21,668 bases of DNA from positions 1-21,668 of the IMG/VR virus record IMGVR_UViG_3300005683_000050; one strand, written 5' to 3'. The notes below the pieces were generated by a model. The model saw only the letters and a program-made list of their open reading frames with translations. It was not told the DNA's origin and did no database searches. How positions within the stretch are numbered: the first letter of the stretch is position 1; every line of letters begins with the position of its first letter. The translations under genes were made by a program, and so were the position numbers. This stretch comes from a virus (lineage: Duplodnaviria > Heunggongvirae > Uroviricota > Caudoviricetes). Shown piece by piece: positions 1 through 17,535 of the stretch.

Positions 1-51
1 GGAAACCTGGGGCATCTTAATATATATAATATATATCAACGCTACGCGTTG
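1..51. repeat. 51-bp exact direct repeat, copy 1 (may extend beyond the window start)
   Basis: ggaaacctggggcatcttaatatatataatatatatcaacgctacgcgttg is identical to 17485-17535; weaker similarity (ttttcaccga) continues for ~25 nt. Confidence 0.97.
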
Positions 52-84
52 ACTCTTTCTTTTTCACCGAGAAAGGAATGCCTC

Positions 85-113
85 TTGACAAAACCTCTGC
101 ATCGTTGTATAAT
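85..113 (+). promoter_or_regulatory. sigma70-type promoter for the tRNA-Cys/HNH transcript
   Basis: Perfect TTGACA (85-90), 17-nt spacer, TATAAT (108-113). Confidence 0.9.
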
Positions 114-119
114 TCTAAG

Positions 120-193
120 GACGACGGAACTCATTTGGTGATGGGACTCGTCTGCAAAACGAGTAAAATCGGGTTCGACTCCCGCCGTCGTCT
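120..193 (+). tRNA. tRNA-Cys (GCA), CCA not encoded
   Basis: Acceptor stem GACGACG(120-126)/CGTCGTC(186-192); anticodon arm CTCGT-ctGCAaa-ACGAG; T arm CGGG-TTCGACT-CCCG; discriminator U as expected for tRNA-Cys. Confidence 0.9.
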
Positions 194-209
194 CTCACAA
201 GGAGATATT

Positions 210-725
210 ATGAAAAACGTATTACTGTTGAACGCAGACTTCACGCCGCGCCGAGTAGTCACGCTTGAAAGGGCTATCTTGCTGTTGTTTCGGCAACGGG
301 CTGAACTTGTCGCAGCTAGGGATGGCGAAGTGTTGCGCTCTCCGTCTATGACAATGGAATATCCGTCTGTAATTCGGATGAAACAGTACCGCAATGTTCC
401 TCGTATGAAAGCAACGTGGAGGGCAAAAGAAGTACTGAAACGGGACGACTATACTTGTATTTACTGCGGGAAAAAACTAAAGTCCGACGAAGCGACTCTT
501 GAGCATATTTACCCAAAGTCAAGGTGCAAGAAGGAGGGCATTCCAGCAAACACTTGGGTAAATACGGCGTGTGCTTGCAAAAAGTGTCAAACCAAAAAGG
601 GCGACAGAACTATCGGTGAGTCTGGGATGAAGCTATTGTGGGAGCCGCGCATTCCACGCACGAATTACGTGGTCGTCTCGGACGATTGCGACGACACGTG
701 GAAGTACTACATAGAGGGACATTAA
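210..725 (+). CDS. HNH endonuclease (McrA-like family)
   Basis: RDDYTCIYCG, TLEHIYPKSR and WVNTACACKKCQTKKG motifs; SD AAGGAG just before ATG 210. The ORF-track 5' extension overlaps the tRNA and promoter. Confidence 0.88.
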   Translation: MKNVLLLNADFTPRRVVTLERAILLLFRQRAELVAARDGEVLRSPSMTMEYPSVIRMKQYRNVPRMKATWRAKEVLKRDDYTCIYCGKKLKSDEATLEHIYPKSRCKKEGIPANTWVNTACACKKCQTKKGDRTIGESGMKLLWEPRIPRTNYVVVSDDCDDTWKYYIEGH

Positions 726-2518: not shown

Positions 2519-3000
2519 TGCCAAACGGATATGTTCACAATAGGTTCACAATCATACTCGGAGTTTTAACGATTCCAGCGTCGTTGCTGTTTGTAGACCC
2601 TCAGACCGCAATGTGGTATGGCGCAGGCGTAGCTCTGGGAATTATTATGACTCCAGACCTAGACCAAGCAGAAATACACTCTGTCACGCCTCAGCAAATG
2701 GTCGGAAACGCGCTTGGGGAGTTCGCGGAAAATATATATCGGGTTATATGGTTTCCGTATGGATTGTTTATATCGCACCGTTCTTGGGTAAGTCATTTTC
2801 CAGTGGTTGGAACTGCAATTCGTCTTTTGTACTTGTATGTATTGTATTGGTGTGCATGTTGGACTTTGCGGATAGAGCCGATTCCACTACAAGTTCCGAT
2901 TCCACTTGTTGTCGGACTCGTCATTGCCGATACACAACATTTCATCTTAGACCAGCTTCCTTTTTTCCGCGGAGAAAAGAAGCAACGAAAAAAAGGATAA
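2518..3000 (+). CDS. metal-binding membrane protein (DUF2227/YdjM-like putative hydrolase)
   Basis: MP.G..H, PDLD, HRSWVSH and H..LD motifs between hydrophobic segments. Confidence 0.7.
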   Translation: MPNGYVHNRFTIILGVLTIPASLLFVDPQTAMWYGAGVALGIIMTPDLDQAEIHSVTPQQMVGNALGEFAENIYRVIWFPYGLFISHRSWVSHFPVVGTAIRLLYLYVLYWCACWTLRIEPIPLQVPIPLVVGLVIADTQHFILDQLPFFRGEKKQRKKG

Positions 3001-3004
3001 CAAC

Positions 3005-3103
3005 GTGAAATTCAAAACTGATGATGTGATTCCGTTTCTGCTTATAATTAACATCATATTCTACGCACTTATTTTTGGGATTGCCTTGATTATTAGTAGT
3101 TGA
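3005..3103 (+). CDS. small membrane peptide (32 aa)
   Basis: Manual translation MKFKTDDVIPFLLIINIIFYALIFGIALIISS; GTG start with AAGGA upstream; below the ORF-track cutoff. Confidence 0.45.
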   Translation: MKFKTDDVIPFLLIINIIFYALIFGIALIISS

Positions 3104-3128
3104 CATTTGCACTGATTTGTGGTATACT
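3100..3128 (+). promoter_or_regulatory. sigma70-type promoter for the non-coding transcript
   Basis: TTGACA (3100-3105), 17 nt, TGg-TATACT extended -10 (3123-3128). Confidence 0.85.
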
Positions 3129-3132
3129 TACA

Positions 3133-3422
3133 GTAAGAGGCAAAGCTTAACAGCCGCTAGATAACTCCCGAACACAGGTAAAGGGATAGTCGGATACTTC
3201 GGCGTAGTAATGCCCCACCTGTTTACTCGTTAATTCCATGCGAGTATAAATAAAGGAAACTGTCTGCCACTTTGCATGTAGTATGGTACATTATCTGAAA
3301 ATAGCCACATAAGAAATATCGGGTATGTGGCAGACAAATCATCTCTACGTAATTGTGCGTAGAGTAAAAATAAGTGTAGGTCGTTTAATCTCGATAGGGG
3401 ATGCGAACGGGTCAACTTACAC
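3133..3422 (+). ncRNA. candidate structured ncRNA, family unassigned
   Basis: Lies between a promoter and a terminator with no + strand ORF; stems at 3174-3179/3217-3222, 3224-3230/3240-3246, 3261-3270/3327-3336, 3343-3351/3356-3364 and 3374-3380/3416-3422. Confidence 0.6.
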
Positions 3423-3423
3423 G

Positions 3424-3455
3424 AAACCCCACTACTGTTAGTGGGGTTTTTGTTT
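3424..3455. terminator. intrinsic terminator, probably bidirectional
   Basis: aaaccccacta-ctgt-tagtggggttt followed by a T-run, between convergent transcription units. Confidence 0.85.
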
Positions 3456-3660
3456 ATCTTATTTCTATGGATTTTTTCCCGACCTTGCAGAATGCCACTC
3501 CTCCGATATATTCTACAGTCCCTTTTCGTTTTGAACATACCGACCTGTTATATTGAATGCTTAAACTTGCCGCGTCCGAGTATGTTTTGAAACTGGAAAC
3601 CGCAAACAAGACAGTGCTTGCTAGTATCAATAGAATTGCAACTGAAATAATCTTAGACAT
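3454..3660 (-). CDS. small protein with N-terminal signal/TM segment
   Basis: Hydrophobic N-terminus, C-x3-G...C pair; SD GGAG upstream. Confidence 0.65.
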   Translation of the reverse strand: MSKIISVAILLILASTVLFAVSSFKTYSDAASLSIQYNRSVCSKRKGTVEYIGGVAFCKVGKKSIEIR

Positions 3661-3679
3661 TCCACACTCCGTTGTGTTT

Positions 3680-3713
3680 TGCTATGCCCCAATGGGTTAC
3701 TTATTTATTGGCT
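3680..3713 (-). ncRNA. candidate tigRNA-like guide unit 2 (34 nt, possibly degenerate)
   Basis: Minus strand AGCCA-ataaata-AGTAACCCA-ttggggcat-AGCA; shares an exact 14-mer with the 6605-6640 unit. Confidence 0.4.
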
Positions 3714-3746
3714 GTCACTCTGCGCTATTTGTGGGGCTATGTTTTT

Positions 3747-3884
3747 CTACTTTGCTCCGCCTGCAAGAACATTTCCGCAAGCACAACATCCTACACACAA
3801 AATGTCGCACTTCCCAGTAAGGTAGTTAAATGCAAACCATGCAAACTGAAACTTTGGTTGGTGTTTACATTCGTTGTTTTTCAT
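3747..3884 (-). CDS. small Cys-rich protein (45 aa), possible zinc ribbon
   Basis: Manual translation MKNNECKHQPKFQFAWFAFNYLTGKCDILCVGCCACGNVLAGGAK, directly downstream of a consensus promoter. Confidence 0.55.
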   Translation of the reverse strand: MKNNECKHQPKFQFAWFAFNYLTGKCDILCVGCCACGNVLAGGAK

Positions 3885-3893
3885 GTCAATTCA

Positions 3894-3922
3894 ATTATAC
3901 TGTATCCGTAGGAATTTGTCAA
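3894..3922 (-). promoter_or_regulatory. sigma70-type promoter
   Basis: TTGACA-17-TATAAT on the minus strand; the -35 contains the radical SAM TGA stop. Confidence 0.88.
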
Positions 3923-4806
3923 GACATTGAACGTACATGGTGAAACATTTCAATCACATCCATTCCAATGAATGAATACCTATTTGGAGACGTAGAGTTT
4001 TTGGCATATGCGCCAAGCACGGCATCAATGTAGAATGTATATTTTCCGTCGTCTCCCATGTACATTTCTTCCCACTGACTTTCTGTCAAGAATCTCTTCG
4101 GGTCAAGTTGTTCGATTGCCAAATTGTCAAACGATACCAATGAGACATTTTGCATAATCTCGCCCAACGAATCGTACAATCCGCCATCTAGGGTGTCGAA
4201 ACTCTTTCCGCGACCCCAATCCTTGTATCCGAGAATCAGAATCTTTGCGTTTTCTCCGTAGAGCATACGAATTGTGTCAATCGAGTGGACTCGGTTAATG
4301 ACATGCAAAATCGCGTTCGGCAAAAGTAAAACATCCAACAGTTTTTTGTTGACCGTTGTGTGTAGAGAGACCCCAATTCCATATATCAACTTATCATCCA
4401 CAAGGCGACAAAGCAAGTCCAGATACTTTGGCTGCTCGGTATGAAACTGGTTTACCGTAATGTTGCAAATCACACCGTCTTCTTTTTGCCGCCGCAAAAA
4501 TTCAATGAGGTCTGGGTGGTCAAGTGGGTTTCCTCCACCAATCGCCAGTTCTTGTCCAGCGATGAATCGCGGCAGTGTTAACAGGTCGGCGTGTTTTCCT
4601 CTTACGGTTGACATTTCGTGACACCACCTGCATCCCGCGTCACAATAGTTCGTTATCTTTAGGTCTATGTTTTCCGCGTGGTTCGGAATAAATGCATCGT
4701 GCTTTGTGACTCGGATTTTTGTTCCGTCGTCAAAGAGAATGACCCTGTAGTTCCCGTTTTTATATGTTGCTAATTGGTTCATGTTTATAAGGGGACGACT
4801 TTTCAT
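3919..4806 (-). CDS. radical SAM enzyme
   Basis: CxxxCxxC (CDAGCRWC), GGGNP, NITVN and GVS motifs; no C-terminal SPASM cysteines; start uncertain (4815, 4806 or 4782). Confidence 0.9.
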   Translation of the reverse strand: MKSRPLINMNQLATYKNGNYRVILFDDGTKIRVTKHDAFIPNHAENIDLKITNYCDAGCRWCHEMSTVRGKHADLLTLPRFIAGQELAIGGGNPLDHPDLIEFLRRQKEDGVICNITVNQFHTEQPKYLDLLCRLVDDKLIYGIGVSLHTTVNKKLLDVLLLPNAILHVINRVHSIDTIRMLYGENAKILILGYKDWGRGKSFDTLDGGLYDSLGEIMQNVSLVSFDNLAIEQLDPKRFLTESQWEEMYMGDDGKYTFYIDAVLGAYAKNSTSPNRYSFIGMDVIEMFHHVRSMS

Positions 4807-4817
4807 CGTCCCCAATC

Positions 4818-5093
4818 CTATCCGTCGCCGCGCACGACACTAATCGCAAAAACCTTTCCGTATGGAGTGTCAATTGATTTAATCTCCGTACCGTCATCGT
4901 CGGTCACAAACTCTTCAAATGTTATATACCGCCATTGATTCCCTTGTGGTTTTTCTACGAATTTCTTGTCAATTCTGTCGTAGACAATCTCACCATTAAC
5001 GAATCTAGTGTAATCATCCGACATCATCATTACAAGTGTATGGGTTGAGCTGGAGTTGGTCTCAAAGGCAGATGCCCTAACATTAACTCTCAT
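4818..5093 (-). CDS. FETNSSSTH-motif protein 3
   Basis: Begins MRVNVRASAFETNSSSTH; ATGA-coupled to the upstream paralog. Confidence 0.85.
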   Translation of the reverse strand: MRVNVRASAFETNSSSTHTLVMMMSDDYTRFVNGEIVYDRIDKKFVEKPQGNQWRYITFEEFVTDDDGTEIKSIDTPYGKVFAISVVRGDG

Positions 5094-5383
5094 TGGTACC
5101 CATACTTTCCAAAGACAACAATCTTTTCACCATTAGGAGTGGTGTATTGTTTCATATACGTTTCCATCATATCGTCTGCGAAAAACTGCTCGTATGTTTC
5201 TTGCTCTGAGTAATCGTCGTCTTGCGGTTCTTGCAGTTCTTCTAACTTGTCGCCGTAAAGACCATATACATATACTTTCTTCCCTTGCTTGAACTGGTCA
5301 AACTCATCCTGCGTACAAATTGTCAATGTGTGTGTTGAGCTGGAATTTGTCTCGAATGCACTTTTTCTAATCTGGTATTTCAT
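5090..5383 (-). CDS. FETNSSSTH-motif protein 2
   Basis: Begins MKYQIRKSAFETNSSSTH; SD AGGAG; ATGA overlap with the methyltransferase stop. Confidence 0.85.
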   Translation of the reverse strand: MKYQIRKSAFETNSSSTHTLTICTQDEFDQFKQGKKVYVYGLYGDKLEELQEPQDDDYSEQETYEQFFADDMMETYMKQYTTPNGEKIVVFGKYGYQ

Positions 5384-6045
5384 ATGTCCGTCTCCTGATA
5401 ATATATCATTTCGTTCTTGTATCCTCGCTGAGCGTACTGCCTCTTCAATGGTACAAACTCCATCCAATCAGCTTTATCGTTTTCGCAAACAATAACTTGT
5501 CCGAGACGAGACTTTGACCACTCTCCCAGCGCAGGGTAATCTATTTTATTGTGAACATATCTCCGTCCTCCGTGTTGGTACGGAGGGTCAATGAACCATG
5601 TAGCGACACGATTCTCCGCGTCCATGCCATCTCCGAGAATAATATCCCAGTGGCGTATGCGATACAGGTTTTCTGCTATCCATTTTTTTCTATTCTCCCA
5701 CCATGTTTCGGCGTTGGAATAGTTTCCAGTGGTCTTGTGCGGTTTAGGAGTTCCCCTGTTTCCGCAAAAAGATACGATGTCGTTTTCGGCTTCCGTTAGA
5801 TAGGCGTGTCTTTGAATTGTCTTCCTCTTAACCGAAGGGAGTGCAAGAATGTCTGACGGACTAGCTTCTTGAAGATATTTCCATACCCTGAAAAGTCTGT
5901 CGTACTTTTCATACAGTACGACATTCTTCTCGAAGTGTAACAGAGAATACTGTGCCGACCCAGCGAAAGGTTCAATCACGGTGTCGTATTTGGGCGCGGG
6001 ATACACGGACGCAACTCTTATCTTACTTCCGTAATAGCTAATCAT
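5380..6045 (-). CDS. DNA adenine methyltransferase (Dam/D12-class-like)
   Basis: SYYGSK, EPFAGSA (SAM-binding) and DPPY (catalytic) motifs; start set at MISYYGSK. Confidence 0.85.
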   Translation of the reverse strand: MISYYGSKIRVASVYPAPKYDTVIEPFAGSAQYSLLHFEKNVVLYEKYDRLFRVWKYLQEASPSDILALPSVKRKTIQRHAYLTEAENDIVSFCGNRGTPKPHKTTGNYSNAETWWENRKKWIAENLYRIRHWDIILGDGMDAENRVATWFIDPPYQHGGRRYVHNKIDYPALGEWSKSRLGQVIVCENDKADWMEFVPLKRQYAQRGYKNEMIYYQETDI

Positions 6046-6535
6046 GGTTGTCGTTGTCAATGACGATATACGACCCTGTTCCAAAAATAAGGCTTTCCAA
6101 TTGTCGTATAAAGTCTTCCTTTTTAATTTTTGTGTCAAGGATAAAGTCGAGAACTCCTATTGACTGGTGGTCAATATATCCAAGCGAGAACAATTCGTCG
6201 GGATTCTTTAGTGGAATAAAATTTACAGAATGACCAGTCTTTTCTTCTATCATTCCCATTATCCATTTATACTGCCTTAGATTTTTCATACGACTGATAA
6301 TGGAAGACGGATTTAATCTAAAATTATTCGCGAGAGCGACCTTGTATGCCATATGGGTAAGTATGTATGACAACTTTTCAGACGGAGTTCTCAGGACTTC
6401 GTATCCCCACCCAAACTCTCCAGGGTAGATGTCCGCGTCTACGAGATACTTTTTCGCGCAATCAGTCTTAATGGTTACGGAATGCGTGGAGCTTGAGTTG
6501 GTTTCAAACGTTCCGTTGCGAATTTGAATTTTCAT
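6038..6535 (-). CDS. FETNSSSTH-motif protein 1
   Basis: Begins MKIQIRNGTFETNSSSTH; also YIDHQS and C-terminal DNDNHD; first gene after a promoter. Confidence 0.85.
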   Translation of the reverse strand: MKIQIRNGTFETNSSSTHSVTIKTDCAKKYLVDADIYPGEFGWGYEVLRTPSEKLSYILTHMAYKVALANNFRLNPSSIISRMKNLRQYKWIMGMIEEKTGHSVNFIPLKNPDELFSLGYIDHQSIGVLDFILDTKIKKEDFIRQLESLIFGTGSYIVIDNDNHD

Positions 6536-6541
6536 ACTATG

Positions 6542-6570
6542 ATTTTACACTACATTTTGAATTTTGTCAA
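6542..6570 (-). promoter_or_regulatory. sigma70-type promoter, leaderless, for the FETNSSSTH/radical SAM operon
   Basis: TTGACA-17-TAAAAT, 6 nt, then ATG 6535. Confidence 0.85.
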
Positions 6571-6576
6571 GATGGG

Positions 6577-6604
6577 AAAAAACAACCATTAAGTAATGGG
6601 TTGT
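6577..6604 (-). terminator. intrinsic terminator after the 36-nt unit
   Basis: Minus strand acaacccatt-actt-aatggttgt followed by TTTTT. Confidence 0.55.
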
Positions 6605-6640
6605 CGCTGTAATACAATGGGTTACTTAAACACTACGGCA
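6605..6640 (-). ncRNA. candidate tigRNA-like guide unit 1 (36 nt)
   Basis: Minus strand TGCCG-tagtgttta-AGTAACCCA-ttgtattac-AGCG (5+9+9+9+4); TATAAT 5 nt upstream (6646-6651) and a terminator directly downstream; ~730 nt downstream of the TasA-like gene on the same strand. Confidence 0.55.
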
Positions 6641-6646
6641 ACACCA

Positions 6647-7084
6647 TTATATATCGGAATCATCGTCCTTGAATTCAATTCCCATACACTCGAACATATC
6701 GGCAATCAACGACGGGTACGCTAAAATAGCCCTATCACTCTGCCATGTTGACTCAGAATGATACACGTCTTTTTCCTCCATGAATCGGAAAAGTAAATCT
6801 GCAATCCTGCGGGCGTCCATATGGATTACAACTTTGTCGTTTTCATATCTTAGGCTAGACGACATGGAAACATTTATCACTGGAACTTGCTCTTGCGGAC
6901 TGTTGTCTGGAAACGACTCGTCTCGATAAAATAAATAAGATACGTTCCTTGCTGGGTCATGTGACGAACCGACAAACTCCGCCGTTGACGGAAGACCGCG
7001 CGTACACGTTCCAACTATCAGATTTCCCTCAGTTACAATGTCTTTCAACAATCTTCCGCCTACCATTACTGATTTTACTCTCAA
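6647..7084 (-). CDS. hypothetical protein
   Basis: 145-aa ORF, overlap-coupled to the upstream gene. Confidence 0.7.
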   Translation of the reverse strand: MRVKSVMVGGRLLKDIVTEGNLIVGTCTRGLPSTAEFVGSSHDPARNVSYLFYRDESFPDNSPQEQVPVINVSMSSSLRYENDKVVIHMDARRIADLLFRFMEEKDVYHSESTWQSDRAILAYPSLIADMFECMGIEFKDDDSDI

Positions 7085-7377
7085 TGTGGAAACTCTCCAT
7101 TCAGGATACCTCTATCTGTCAATTCATCAACAACGGTTTTAATCTCGACGCCAGACATTTCTGTTCCGCCAATAAGGTTGTACAGCATTTTCCACAAAAA
7201 CTCTATCAACTCAATATCGCTCATTTTGTTTTTTGTGGATATTGCGTCTGTATCTCCAGTGAAATTGTTTCCCGACTCTAGAATCTCACGTTTCCTCTTG
7301 TTTGTGTTATATATTTCTTTCTGAATGTAATCGTCGTATAGGTCGGCAATTTCCGATTCTGTCAAAGTGTCGTTCAT
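7081..7377 (-). CDS. hypothetical protein
   Basis: SD GGAGG; ATGA overlap with the TasA-like gene. Confidence 0.7.
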   Translation of the reverse strand: MNDTLTESEIADLYDDYIQKEIYNTNKRKREILESGNNFTGDTDAISTKNKMSDIELIEFLWKMLYNLIGGTEMSGVEIKTVVDELTDRGILNGEFPH

Positions 7378-8186
7378 CTCACCCTCCCAGCGATTTTTTT
7401 CTTTGTTCTATTGTCTGTCCATCCAAAATCTTGCGGATTATAAATGTGGATATGCCCATGCAACTCGGCATACGTTTTTGTTACTGGCAAGGACTCCATC
7501 TCTCTCCACACCGCCCACAGGTGTTGTAGAAAGATTTTGTTCATCTTACGCATTGCCGCAATAGAGGCATGTCCGCGTGTCCACCCGCGACTTAGATATT
7601 CCTCTTTCGACTCGTCATATATTTTGCGATACGGAGAATTCGACTTTATAAAGCTTTGTCCAACATTGTACATCACAGATTTTAATTCTGGATTAAATGG
7701 AATAACCCATCCGTACATTTTCCTGTCCCTGACCTTAACCAAGTGCCAGTCTGGGAGCGGGTTCACTTCAGAAAAAACCTTTTGTCTTTCTGAGTTCCAC
7801 CTGTACCCATTACGCGGCGACACCACCACCCCATCAGCGTCAGCCCAATAGTCGTACAGTCCAATACCAGCGTATCTCCACATCTTCGATACGGTTGTGC
7901 ATTCTTGTATGTCTATCTCTGCTACGATGCGAGCCGCAAGCATAGCTCCGACACCTTTTATGGATAATAGTCTATTAACAATCGGAATGCCAATCGCAAT
8001 CTCGATTATCTCTGCGCTGATTTCGTCCTCATTGTCTCCGAAAACCCTAGCCCACTTTTCAACTGTTGCCGCAGAGATGGAGTCCATCTCATCAGAGTGC
8101 GAAGAACGGTTGTCCATTGCAATCCTATACTTTTGCGTCATTTGGCGCATACGTATAAGTGCTTTGAGTGCTTGCATTTGATTCAT
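7374..8186 (-). CDS. tasA: IS110/Nop-fold RNA-binding protein without a nuclease domain (TIGR-Tas TasA-like)
   Basis: Helical N-terminus, LLSIKGVG..LAARIVAEIDI....VSKMWRYAG (IS110 C-terminal/Nop-like), FNPELK, H...AAMRKM.KIFL.HLW..WR..E.LP; no DEDD RuvC domain and no IS110 catalytic SG loop after YAG. Confidence 0.7.
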   Translation of the reverse strand: MNQMQALKALIRMRQMTQKYRIAMDNRSSHSDEMDSISAATVEKWARVFGDNEDEISAEIIEIAIGIPIVNRLLSIKGVGAMLAARIVAEIDIQECTTVSKMWRYAGIGLYDYWADADGVVVSPRNGYRWNSERQKVFSEVNPLPDWHLVKVRDRKMYGWVIPFNPELKSVMYNVGQSFIKSNSPYRKIYDESKEEYLSRGWTRGHASIAAMRKMNKIFLQHLWAVWREMESLPVTKTYAELHGHIHIYNPQDFGWTDNRTKKKIAGRVR

Positions 8187-8545
8187 GCTATTTTAATCCA
8201 CTTGGGCGAATATGTCGCGTTCAGTATCATGTACAACCCATCATCACATGATTGATAAAATGTCTTTTGGCCATTAAAAACTTCATTGACATATGTAGCG
8301 ATGTTTTCCATGTTGTTTGTAGCCGAAAGTCCATGATTGTCAACGTCGTCTGTCACTAGAACCGCAACTCCGCCAATCCCAGAAAGTATAATGGCATAAT
8401 ATATTCCGCCATTAACCGAAAATCTTAGAAGTACTTTGGTTGACCCTGATATACGAGCATGAGAAAGCAACACGTCTTCGTGCTTCTTTCTCATGCCGCG
8501 CGGGTCTGTGAAATTTAATTTTACTGGAGTAGTTTTTTCTTGCAT
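8183..8545 (-). CDS. hypothetical protein
   Basis: 120-aa ORF, ATGA-coupled to the TasA-like gene. Confidence 0.65.
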   Translation of the reverse strand: MQEKTTPVKLNFTDPRGMRKKHEDVLLSHARISGSTKVLLRFSVNGGIYYAIILSGIGGVAVLVTDDVDNHGLSATNNMENIATYVNEVFNGQKTFYQSCDDGLYMILNATYSPKWIKIA

Positions 8546-8814
8546 TCTTTAATGTGCCAGCAATTTTCTCGAATTTCTTTGGCAGAGTCTTTGGTGTGTT
8601 CAAAGTGTGGACATTCGCAACTCCACTCTTTTCCATCAAACGAAACAACGTATTGCATTCCGAGATTCGTATGGGAGTTAACAGTCCATGTCTGTTGTCG
8701 TGTGGTATCGAATACAATCCCTACTTCTTCGATATTAGAAATATCAACAACAGTGCCATGTGGCACTAGAAATGTAGTCCCGTTAACTGAAATCTTGACT
8801 TTAGCTGTATTCAT
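8521..8814 (-). CDS. SWIM-type zinc finger protein
   Basis: YVV......WSCECP...CWHI (CxC...CxH); SD AGGAG before ATG 8814. Confidence 0.75.
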   Translation of the reverse strand: MNTAKVKISVNGTTFLVPHGTVVDISNIEEVGIVFDTTRQQTWTVNSHTNLGMQYVVSFDGKEWSCECPHFEHTKDSAKEIRENCWHIKECKKKLLQ

Positions 8815-9224: not shown

Positions 9225-9253
9225 ATTGTATTACAAAAATCAGCCTTTGTCAA
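9225..9253 (-). promoter_or_regulatory. sigma70-type promoter for the operon containing the TasA-like gene
   Basis: TTGACA-17-TACAAT. Confidence 0.85.
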
Positions 9254-17363: not shown

Positions 17364-17484
17364 CCACTTTACATAATGATACTTTTTGGAATTACCCACT
17401 GAGTCGAGTTTTTCGTGCAGAAATCGGGGTATATCCCCCACATTGACTCTAAATATGTATAGTTTTAGGAGATATGCCCCACAA

Positions 17485-17535
17485 GGAAACCTGGGGCATC
17501 TTAATATATATAATATATATCAACGCTACGCGTTG
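17485..17535. repeat. 51-bp exact direct repeat, copy 2
   Basis: Identical to 1-51; contains an AT-only run and the caacgc-tac-gcgttg hairpin. Confidence 0.97.

Follow-up and report, generated by a model that had tools for sequence, protein, structure and literature searches.

The element at positions 3680–3713 (minus strand) is, on the evidence of its sequence and conservation, a guide-RNA gene of a nuclease-free TasA protein encoded at 7374–8186. It is a lone dual-repeat tigRNA unit (hereafter U1), and one that is very probably maintained by selection. The window analysed here (21,668 nt) forms the start of a phage record of 149,668 bp from bioreactor sludge, the genome of which contains 46 tRNAs and more than 100 consensus promoters. 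Two sister phages were available for comparison, designated S2 (contigs L045, L046 and L051) and S3 (contigs L054 and L060), giving three phages in all. The protein gene, the unit with its parts, and a second unit (U2) are as follows:

7374–8186, minus strand: tasA, encoding a 270-aa Nop-domain protein without nuclease (phmmer, structure model, Foldseek)
3680–3713, minus strand: U1, lone dual-repeat tigRNA unit, 34 nt (array consensus match and orthologues)
3709–3713, minus strand: 5′ half-edge of U1
3702–3708, minus strand: spacer A of U1, 7 nt, A/T-only
3693–3701, minus strand: loop repeat of U1, with the box D variant AG and the box C CCA
3684–3692, minus strand: spacer B of U1, 9 nt, TTGGGGCA, its first 8 nt identical in the three phages
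3680–3683, minus strand: 3′ half-edge of U1
6605–6640, minus strand: U2, second lone tigRNA unit, 36 nt (orthologues at L046 40–75 and L054 8227–8262)

The protein was annotated through its sequence matches (TaTasR, 9MTY, with a phmmer E of 1e-17; also TasH) and its structure model (pLDDT 88.5), which Foldseek related to TasH/TasR with an E of 2e-11. It combines a coiled coil with a Nop domain and lacks a nuclease domain; since this domain is missing from its N-terminus, the protein was classified as TasA, and it represents the single Tas of the whole genome. In structure comparisons it was closer to Tas than to Nop5. An IS110 transposon with a DEDD RuvC-like recombinase domain and a two-loop bridge RNA was rejected, as the model has no N-terminal domain, only a partial Transposase_20 match was found, and matches to IS621 were weaker than those to Tas. 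Residues Y239/H245 align with the processing dyad Y289/H296 of SpTasH from Salicola phage CGphi29 (PMC13421893), which carries an HNH domain that is lacking here. In the S2 TasA (L051 361–1101, P0134) the C-terminal Y/H processing loop has been lost, while lone units of the dual-repeat type have been kept. Compared to shorter relatives, the protein presents a 38-aa β-stranded insertion, which by our own reading of the model would lie in about the position of the wedge loop and which, speculatively, might accommodate a wider target gap.

Read from 3713 to 3680, U1 consists of a half-edge, a 7-nt segment, the loop, a 9-nt segment and a second half-edge, as the original prediction had described it. 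An exact 14-mer shared with 6605–6640, also noticed at that time, was confirmed as occurring exactly twice in the window (3690–3703 and 6615–6628) and in none of 100 shuffles of it. The proposal that the element is a guide-like unit for a TasA-like protein is supported by its scaffold, which equals the consensus of the TIGR arrays at homologous TasA loci, by its strand, which is that of tasA, and by its retention in the sister phages. Canonical 36-nt dual-repeat arrays that match U1 in their half-edges and have a loop of the AG type are found at five loci encoding related TasA proteins, and U1 has the C/D boxes of dual-repeat TIGR units. Spacers in such units are 8–10 nt long, usually 9; spacer B has 9 nt, while spacer A, with 7, 7 and 8 nt in the three phages, does not keep to this length. 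Among 280 array spacers, twelve have an A/T-only stretch as their first 7 nt and one is 7 nt long. The TTG of the shared 14-mer is the start of spacer B in all six units found in the three phages, compared with 10 of 280 in arrays, and could be part of the scaffold. In one point the original description of both segments as variable is corrected: across phages spacer B does not vary freely, and its TTG falls inside the 14-mer. The loops of U1 and U2 are equal in this phage only. Finally, U1 folds no better than its shuffles (z +0.87) and has no enclosing stem; a stem-loop TIGR architecture was rejected in the absence of a palindromic stem around the unit. Of the units compared, a clear enclosing stem is seen solely at the U2 of S3.

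A weight matrix trained solely on 50 units from homologous TasA arrays was scanned over the 149.7-kb genome, and both U1 and U2 were among the top three matches genome-wide; the third (118060–118097) lies inside coding sequence and was dismissed as a unit. As a 20-bit score is expected about 0.5 times per simulated genome, the scan alone is no proof, which comes from conservation in the two sister phages. Exact, relaxed and matrix scans of the 149.7-kb genome added no further units, all other matches being at or below null counts. A tandem array of 36-nt units beside tas is absent: the genome harbors two single units, at 0.7 and 3.7 kb downstream of tasA, and the same holds for the S2 and S3 contigs compared. 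With only two units genome-wide there is neither an array nor a wider repertoire but a pair, so that the scattered set of variable guides once suggested for this phage was not found; moreover, spacer B of U1 is fixed across phages. The lone U2, which has a −10-like hexamer just upstream and a hairpin with a T-run downstream, is also kept in S2 and S3.

In S2, U1 (L045 3027–3060) is located 8 nt after the stop codon of the radical SAM gene, is identical at 30 of 34 nt and has a spacer A that is also 7 nt long and A/T-only. In S3 (L054 9868–9902) it is located 13 nt after the stop codon of another gene and before a hairpin, with an A/T-only spacer A of 8 nt. The unit is thus always in sense in the sister phages and follows gene 3′ ends, which argues against an operator or recombination site. 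Spacer B is identical in S3 (9/9) and matches at 8/9 in S2, whereas the loop differs in all three copies. In a quick tree the TasA proteins of the three phages group together (SH-aLRT 93), and identity among the phages at four-fold degenerate sites is only 22–32%, meaning that neutral sequence is saturated. As far as sequence comparison can tell, a fixed spacer with a drifting loop is the reverse of the pattern in an array, where the scaffold is fixed and the spacers change. Together with the short, A/T-only spacer A, it points to a fixed target rather than a relic. Searches of IMG/VR by protein or pattern returned no further sister phages, and a search for the exact U1 pattern retrieved the sister phage alone among metagenome contigs, plus one chance match in 596 Gb of genomes. 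Matches in L058 and in Algoriphagus (L062) were dismissed as chance. The contig P0016 ends 38 nt past the radical SAM stop codon and contains no unit within those 38 nt.

The surroundings of U1 comprise the following features:

3894–3922, minus strand: consensus sigma-70-type promoter (12/12), predicted from sequence to transcribe U1 in sense
3747–3884, minus strand: 45-aa ORF upstream of U1 and predicted to be co-transcribed with it, without family match
3454–3660, minus strand: 68-aa ORF starting 19 nt downstream of U1, without useful family or structure match
3423–3450, called on the plus strand: terminator-like hairpin between convergent transcription units

U1 is accordingly flanked by the 45-aa ORF (3884–3747) and the 68-aa ORF (3660–3454), and the hairpin is probably used on the minus strand too. 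Plus-strand ORFs overlapping U1 have no match in the sister contigs compared, and an Rfam search over 2800–8600 gave no meaningful match. On the plus strand, 3135–3455 is non-coding but structured, has a promoter and a terminator of its own and is not matched in Rfam; within it, positions 3210–3218 are an 8/9 complement of U1 spacer B. Neither this RNA nor the 68-aa ORF has a counterpart in the sister contigs compared.

With regard to function, we tentatively read U1 as a functional single-copy tigRNA gene for TasA with one fixed target, most likely the phage's own origin-like element, a proposition that is slightly more doubtful than secure. From the published cut geometry (PMC12045711) we deduced that a target begins with the spacer-B sequence and continues with spacer A in reverse complement. 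No full two-spacer target of 16–18 bp was found above chance in the phage's own genome (best 13/16), and the candidate was identified through spacer B:

7–36, plus strand: candidate U1 target, copy 1 (spacer-B match 7–15, A/T-only run 17–36)
17474–17520, plus strand: candidate U1 target, copy 2 (spacer-B match 17491–17499, A/T-only run 17501–17520)
17474–17482: inverted second motif in copy 2

At these sites spacer B would form eight Watson-Crick pairs and one wobble, 1 nt before a 20-nt A/T-only run (17–36 and 17501–17520) that is the longest in the genome. At the syntenic site in S3 (about L060 8660–8692), an 8/9 spacer-B match precedes by 2 nt a 20-nt A/T-only run that is likewise the longest of its contig. 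The site lies upstream of a tRNA-Cys promoter in DNA that is otherwise not alignable by blastn. The order of motif and run fits the TIGR orientation in both phages. When similarly pairing sites were ordered by A/T content over the 20 nt that come next, the candidate sites came first among 237 and 57, and a random genomic 9-mer paired as well at them in 0.14% and 0.16% of trials. The site in this phage and that in S3 are homologous and hence not independent; allowing for the several target classes examined, the chance of coincidence for the match itself is a few percent, and a real spacer-B match need not be a functional target.

For S2 a prediction was fixed beforehand; a run of pure TA alternation was found at the corresponding place (L144 3–30), on a contig that starts 2 nt before the run and thus falls short of the position expected for the motif. 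The S2 spacer A is purely alternating and pairs at 7/7 with its own TA run at a gap of 5, compared with 3/7 at gap 2 and 6/7 at gap 5 in this phage and 5/8 at best in S3, and position 9 of spacer B does not covary with the site. Cleavage by TasR tolerates gaps of 1–2 bp only (PMC12045711); as good pairing of spacer A requires a gap of 5 nt, beyond this tolerance, the target is one that we infer. One spacer has been reported to be enough on ssDNA (PMC12045711) and the spacer-B duplex to persist with a mismatched spacer A (PMC13421893), while in PlTasA and SpTasH spacer A engages first (bioRxiv 10.64898/2026.08.11.744272). Binding without cutting may allow looser pairing.

The A/T run, palindromes, divergent transcription and GC skew suggest an origin, the cumulative skew reaching its minimum at the contig-junction copy (7–36) and, in S3, levelling off near the syntenic element. 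The origin-like element occurs twice as a 51-bp repeat (window 1–51 and 17485–17535). The genome end (149575–149668), which S3 synteny joins to position 1, contains a promoter in reverse orientation as well as a palindrome and a cluster rich in CGCG. Both ends of a public 17,514-nt contig fall within the 51-bp repeat, and the 17.5-kb block may exist as a circle or in tandem form. Elsewhere in the genome, the U1 spacer-B motif is repeated in inverted orientation around a 7-nt centre in intergenic DNA (91831–91855), with one arm at 9/9. Self-targeting of tasA by U1 was rejected: the S3 tasA has a 9/9 spacer-B match, but that of this phage only 6/9.

On the origin-like target, the mechanism may be envisaged as follows. 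An ancestral array would have been lost, with U1 kept as a single-copy gene with one fixed target. U1 would be transcribed in sense from the promoter at 3922–3894 and released from the mRNA, possibly by the Y/H dyad of TasA, and a TasA dimer would, by homology, bind it via two C/D box pairs. Spacer B would then pair with the G-rich motif that borders the 20-bp A/T-only run, with spacer A, short and likewise A/T-only, pairing loosely in this easily melted DNA, best across a 5-nt gap. The non-cutting complex could hold the site open and bent, or block it, and thus help or limit, in either direction, phage replication or the neighbouring tRNA-Cys promoter.

For U2, spacer A is unrelated among the three phages and spacer B is nearly fixed. 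The latter (6609–6617, minus strand) is complementary to an extended −10 element that is common in the promoters of this phage and pairs at 8.5/9 with that of seven of the 106 phage promoters, a level reached by 0.7% of random 9-mers. One of these promoters is located in the window:

9225–9253, minus strand: phage promoter with an extended −10 (9226–9234) fully complementary to U2 spacer B

Judging from sequence, U2 spacer B may therefore read promoters, and both guides may read DNA at melting places, mainly through spacer B, which is to be taken as no more than a lead. By extension, this phage clade could have turned TIGR-Tas into a hard-wired regulator of its own DNA, with one guide for the origin melting region and the other for the extended −10, a broader proposal that we consider rather unlikely as a whole. 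Further U2-complementary promoters are found at genome positions 46868, 52384, 53385, 64323, 124707 and 144457. A G at position 3 and a U/C at position 7 of U2 spacer B would read both common promoter variants by wobble. In addition, an intergenic 9/9 match to U2 spacer B, extending to 14/18 for the whole guide, is located at genome 68930–68947 in a CGCG-rich region near the GC-skew maximum.

A possible though rather doubtful alternative is that U1 is a functional lone tigRNA with its fixed target elsewhere, either a conserved host site, a competing element or phage promoters that have a G-run ahead of the −10 hexamer and would be repressed by TasA. TasA has been shown to repress transcription (bioRxiv 10.64898/2026.09.09.750476), U2 spacer B offers the promoter complementarity described above, and three promoters (genome 42343 and 65344, S3 9252) present a 7–8/9 match to U1 spacer B just before the −10 hexamer; the 8-mer TGGGGCAT occurs 14 times compared with 3.5–5.6 expected. 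However, the promoter matches of U1 are mismatched at position 7, where the guide is invariant, a single promoter reaches 8.5/9, and no full two-spacer target stands out above chance in the phage's own genome.

It is improbable that TasA-bound U1 instead pairs with RNA via spacer B alone, in the manner of box C/D guides, or that it acts as a fixed scaffold or in cis control of the 68-aa ORF. Conservation of one spacer alone would be expected for singly acting guides, the TTG opening could be scaffold, and complements of 7–8 nt are present in the 3135–3455 RNA and in conserved 16S rRNA helices. Yet the best 16S rRNA pairing (7.5/9, with one bacterial sequence that is not the host's) falls in several unrelated places, the RNA and the ORF have no counterparts in the sister contigs, and RNA is not cut by TasR (PMC12045711).

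That the element is a DNA site is very improbable, whether as an operator, a recombination site paired with 6605–6640 or an extra site for a protein that reads the origin motif. The original prediction had raised the first two because the units bracket the radical SAM operon; both indeed flank it in this phage and in S2, they share the exact 14-mer here, and the G-rich core is present again at the origin-like element. In S3, though, other genes lie between the units, and in S2 and S3 U1 and U2 share just a few bases, differing in the loop, so that the operator and recombination readings fail. Moreover, the 9-nt loop/9-nt spacer spacing and the C/D boxes are kept in the three phages while the loop sequence changes, and U1 keeps its sense position after stop codons (8 nt in S2; 13 nt, before a hairpin, in S3). 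That U1 is a decayed array relic that has lost 2 nt of spacer A, or resembles a unit by chance, is scarcely credible: the rarity of 7-nt spacers (1/280) and the 20-bit expectation speak for it, but it is largely refuted by the conservation of the short spacer A and of spacer B across saturated divergence, and by the exact-pattern search described above.

Among known systems, U1 and its protein are nearest to dual-repeat TIGR-TasA/TasR (FpTasA, TaTasR, PDB 9MTY; Faure et al. 2025, PMC12045711), which have the same Nop-domain Tas dimer fold, the same unit order (half-edge, spacer A, 9-nt loop, 9-nt spacer B, half-edge), covarying C/D boxes and units on the strand of tas; their members closest to this phage have 36-nt arrays with the same AG-type box D. 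In contrast to those arrays, there are here two single units, spacer A has 7–8 nt, spacer B is fixed across phages, and there are indications of a self target. The system is thus of the dual-repeat TIGR-TasA type in its protein and C/D boxes, not in array or spacer length. Box C/D guide RNAs, for their part, are dispersed single genes with conserved spacers and fixed targets, bound by Nop-domain proteins. U1 resembles them as a dispersed single guide gene with a conserved spacer, but it has no K-turn and its proposed target is DNA. Full edge repeats are needed for processing in minimal arrays (PMC12045711); U1 differs in being a lone unit without them. The TasA/dead TasR repressors (Xu et al. 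2026, bioRxiv 10.64898/2026.09.09.750476) are similar in their nuclease-free RNA-guided DNA binding, assigned here by homology, and in their flexible unit position, but they use stem-loop guides, while U1 forms no stem. Natural targets and arrayless Tas proteins are named as open questions in that study. Its TIGRFinder rules require at least four intervals and spacers of 8–10 nt for dual repeats, and would therefore miss U1.

Natural tigRNA targets are unknown in the TIGR papers because the spacers are short and variable, and literature searches retrieved no report of natural conserved tigRNA targets or of an RNA-guided role at a replication origin. The selected spacer of a lone guide offers a way round both the unknown-target and the arrayless-Tas problem: U1 and U2 illustrate how an array can shrink to dispersed single guides, which array finders overlook, and U1 names one short DNA site as a candidate natural target. 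Should this target prove to be the origin of the phage itself, TasA would act in replication as a factor guided by RNA, and the self-regulator reading, if true, would supply tigRNAs with natural, conserved targets and place RNA guidance at a replication origin. The known targeting rules would likewise have to be broadened if a 7-nt spacer works across a wider gap.

Lone or paired TIGR units kilobases from the main array were also observed in other TasA phages (L012 6059, L019 3547–3620, L022 9580 and 9867, L038 12694), almost invariably on the strand of tas; in L012 the unit comes after a tRNA-like sequence. Both sister phages carry a Ro60/TROVE gene between HNH and RlaP genes (L045 5369–7230; L054 15266–17350), with tRNA-like RNAs upstream, to which no match was found in this genome, and in L001 (8537–9916) TROVE directly precedes tasA. 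Genes with the FETNSS motif precede the radical SAM gene in S2 (four, L046 995–2644) and in this phage (three, window 4818–6535), while the S3 contig compared has none. The named relatives of the HNH gene at window 78–725 belong to Chloroflexota (Anaerolineae, Aggregatilineales), which hints weakly at the host. Finally, further 8-mers are strongly over-represented genome-wide, among them CGACCACG (45 occurrences vs 2–4 expected) and GTTACATA (33 vs about 5), which point to further repeat families.
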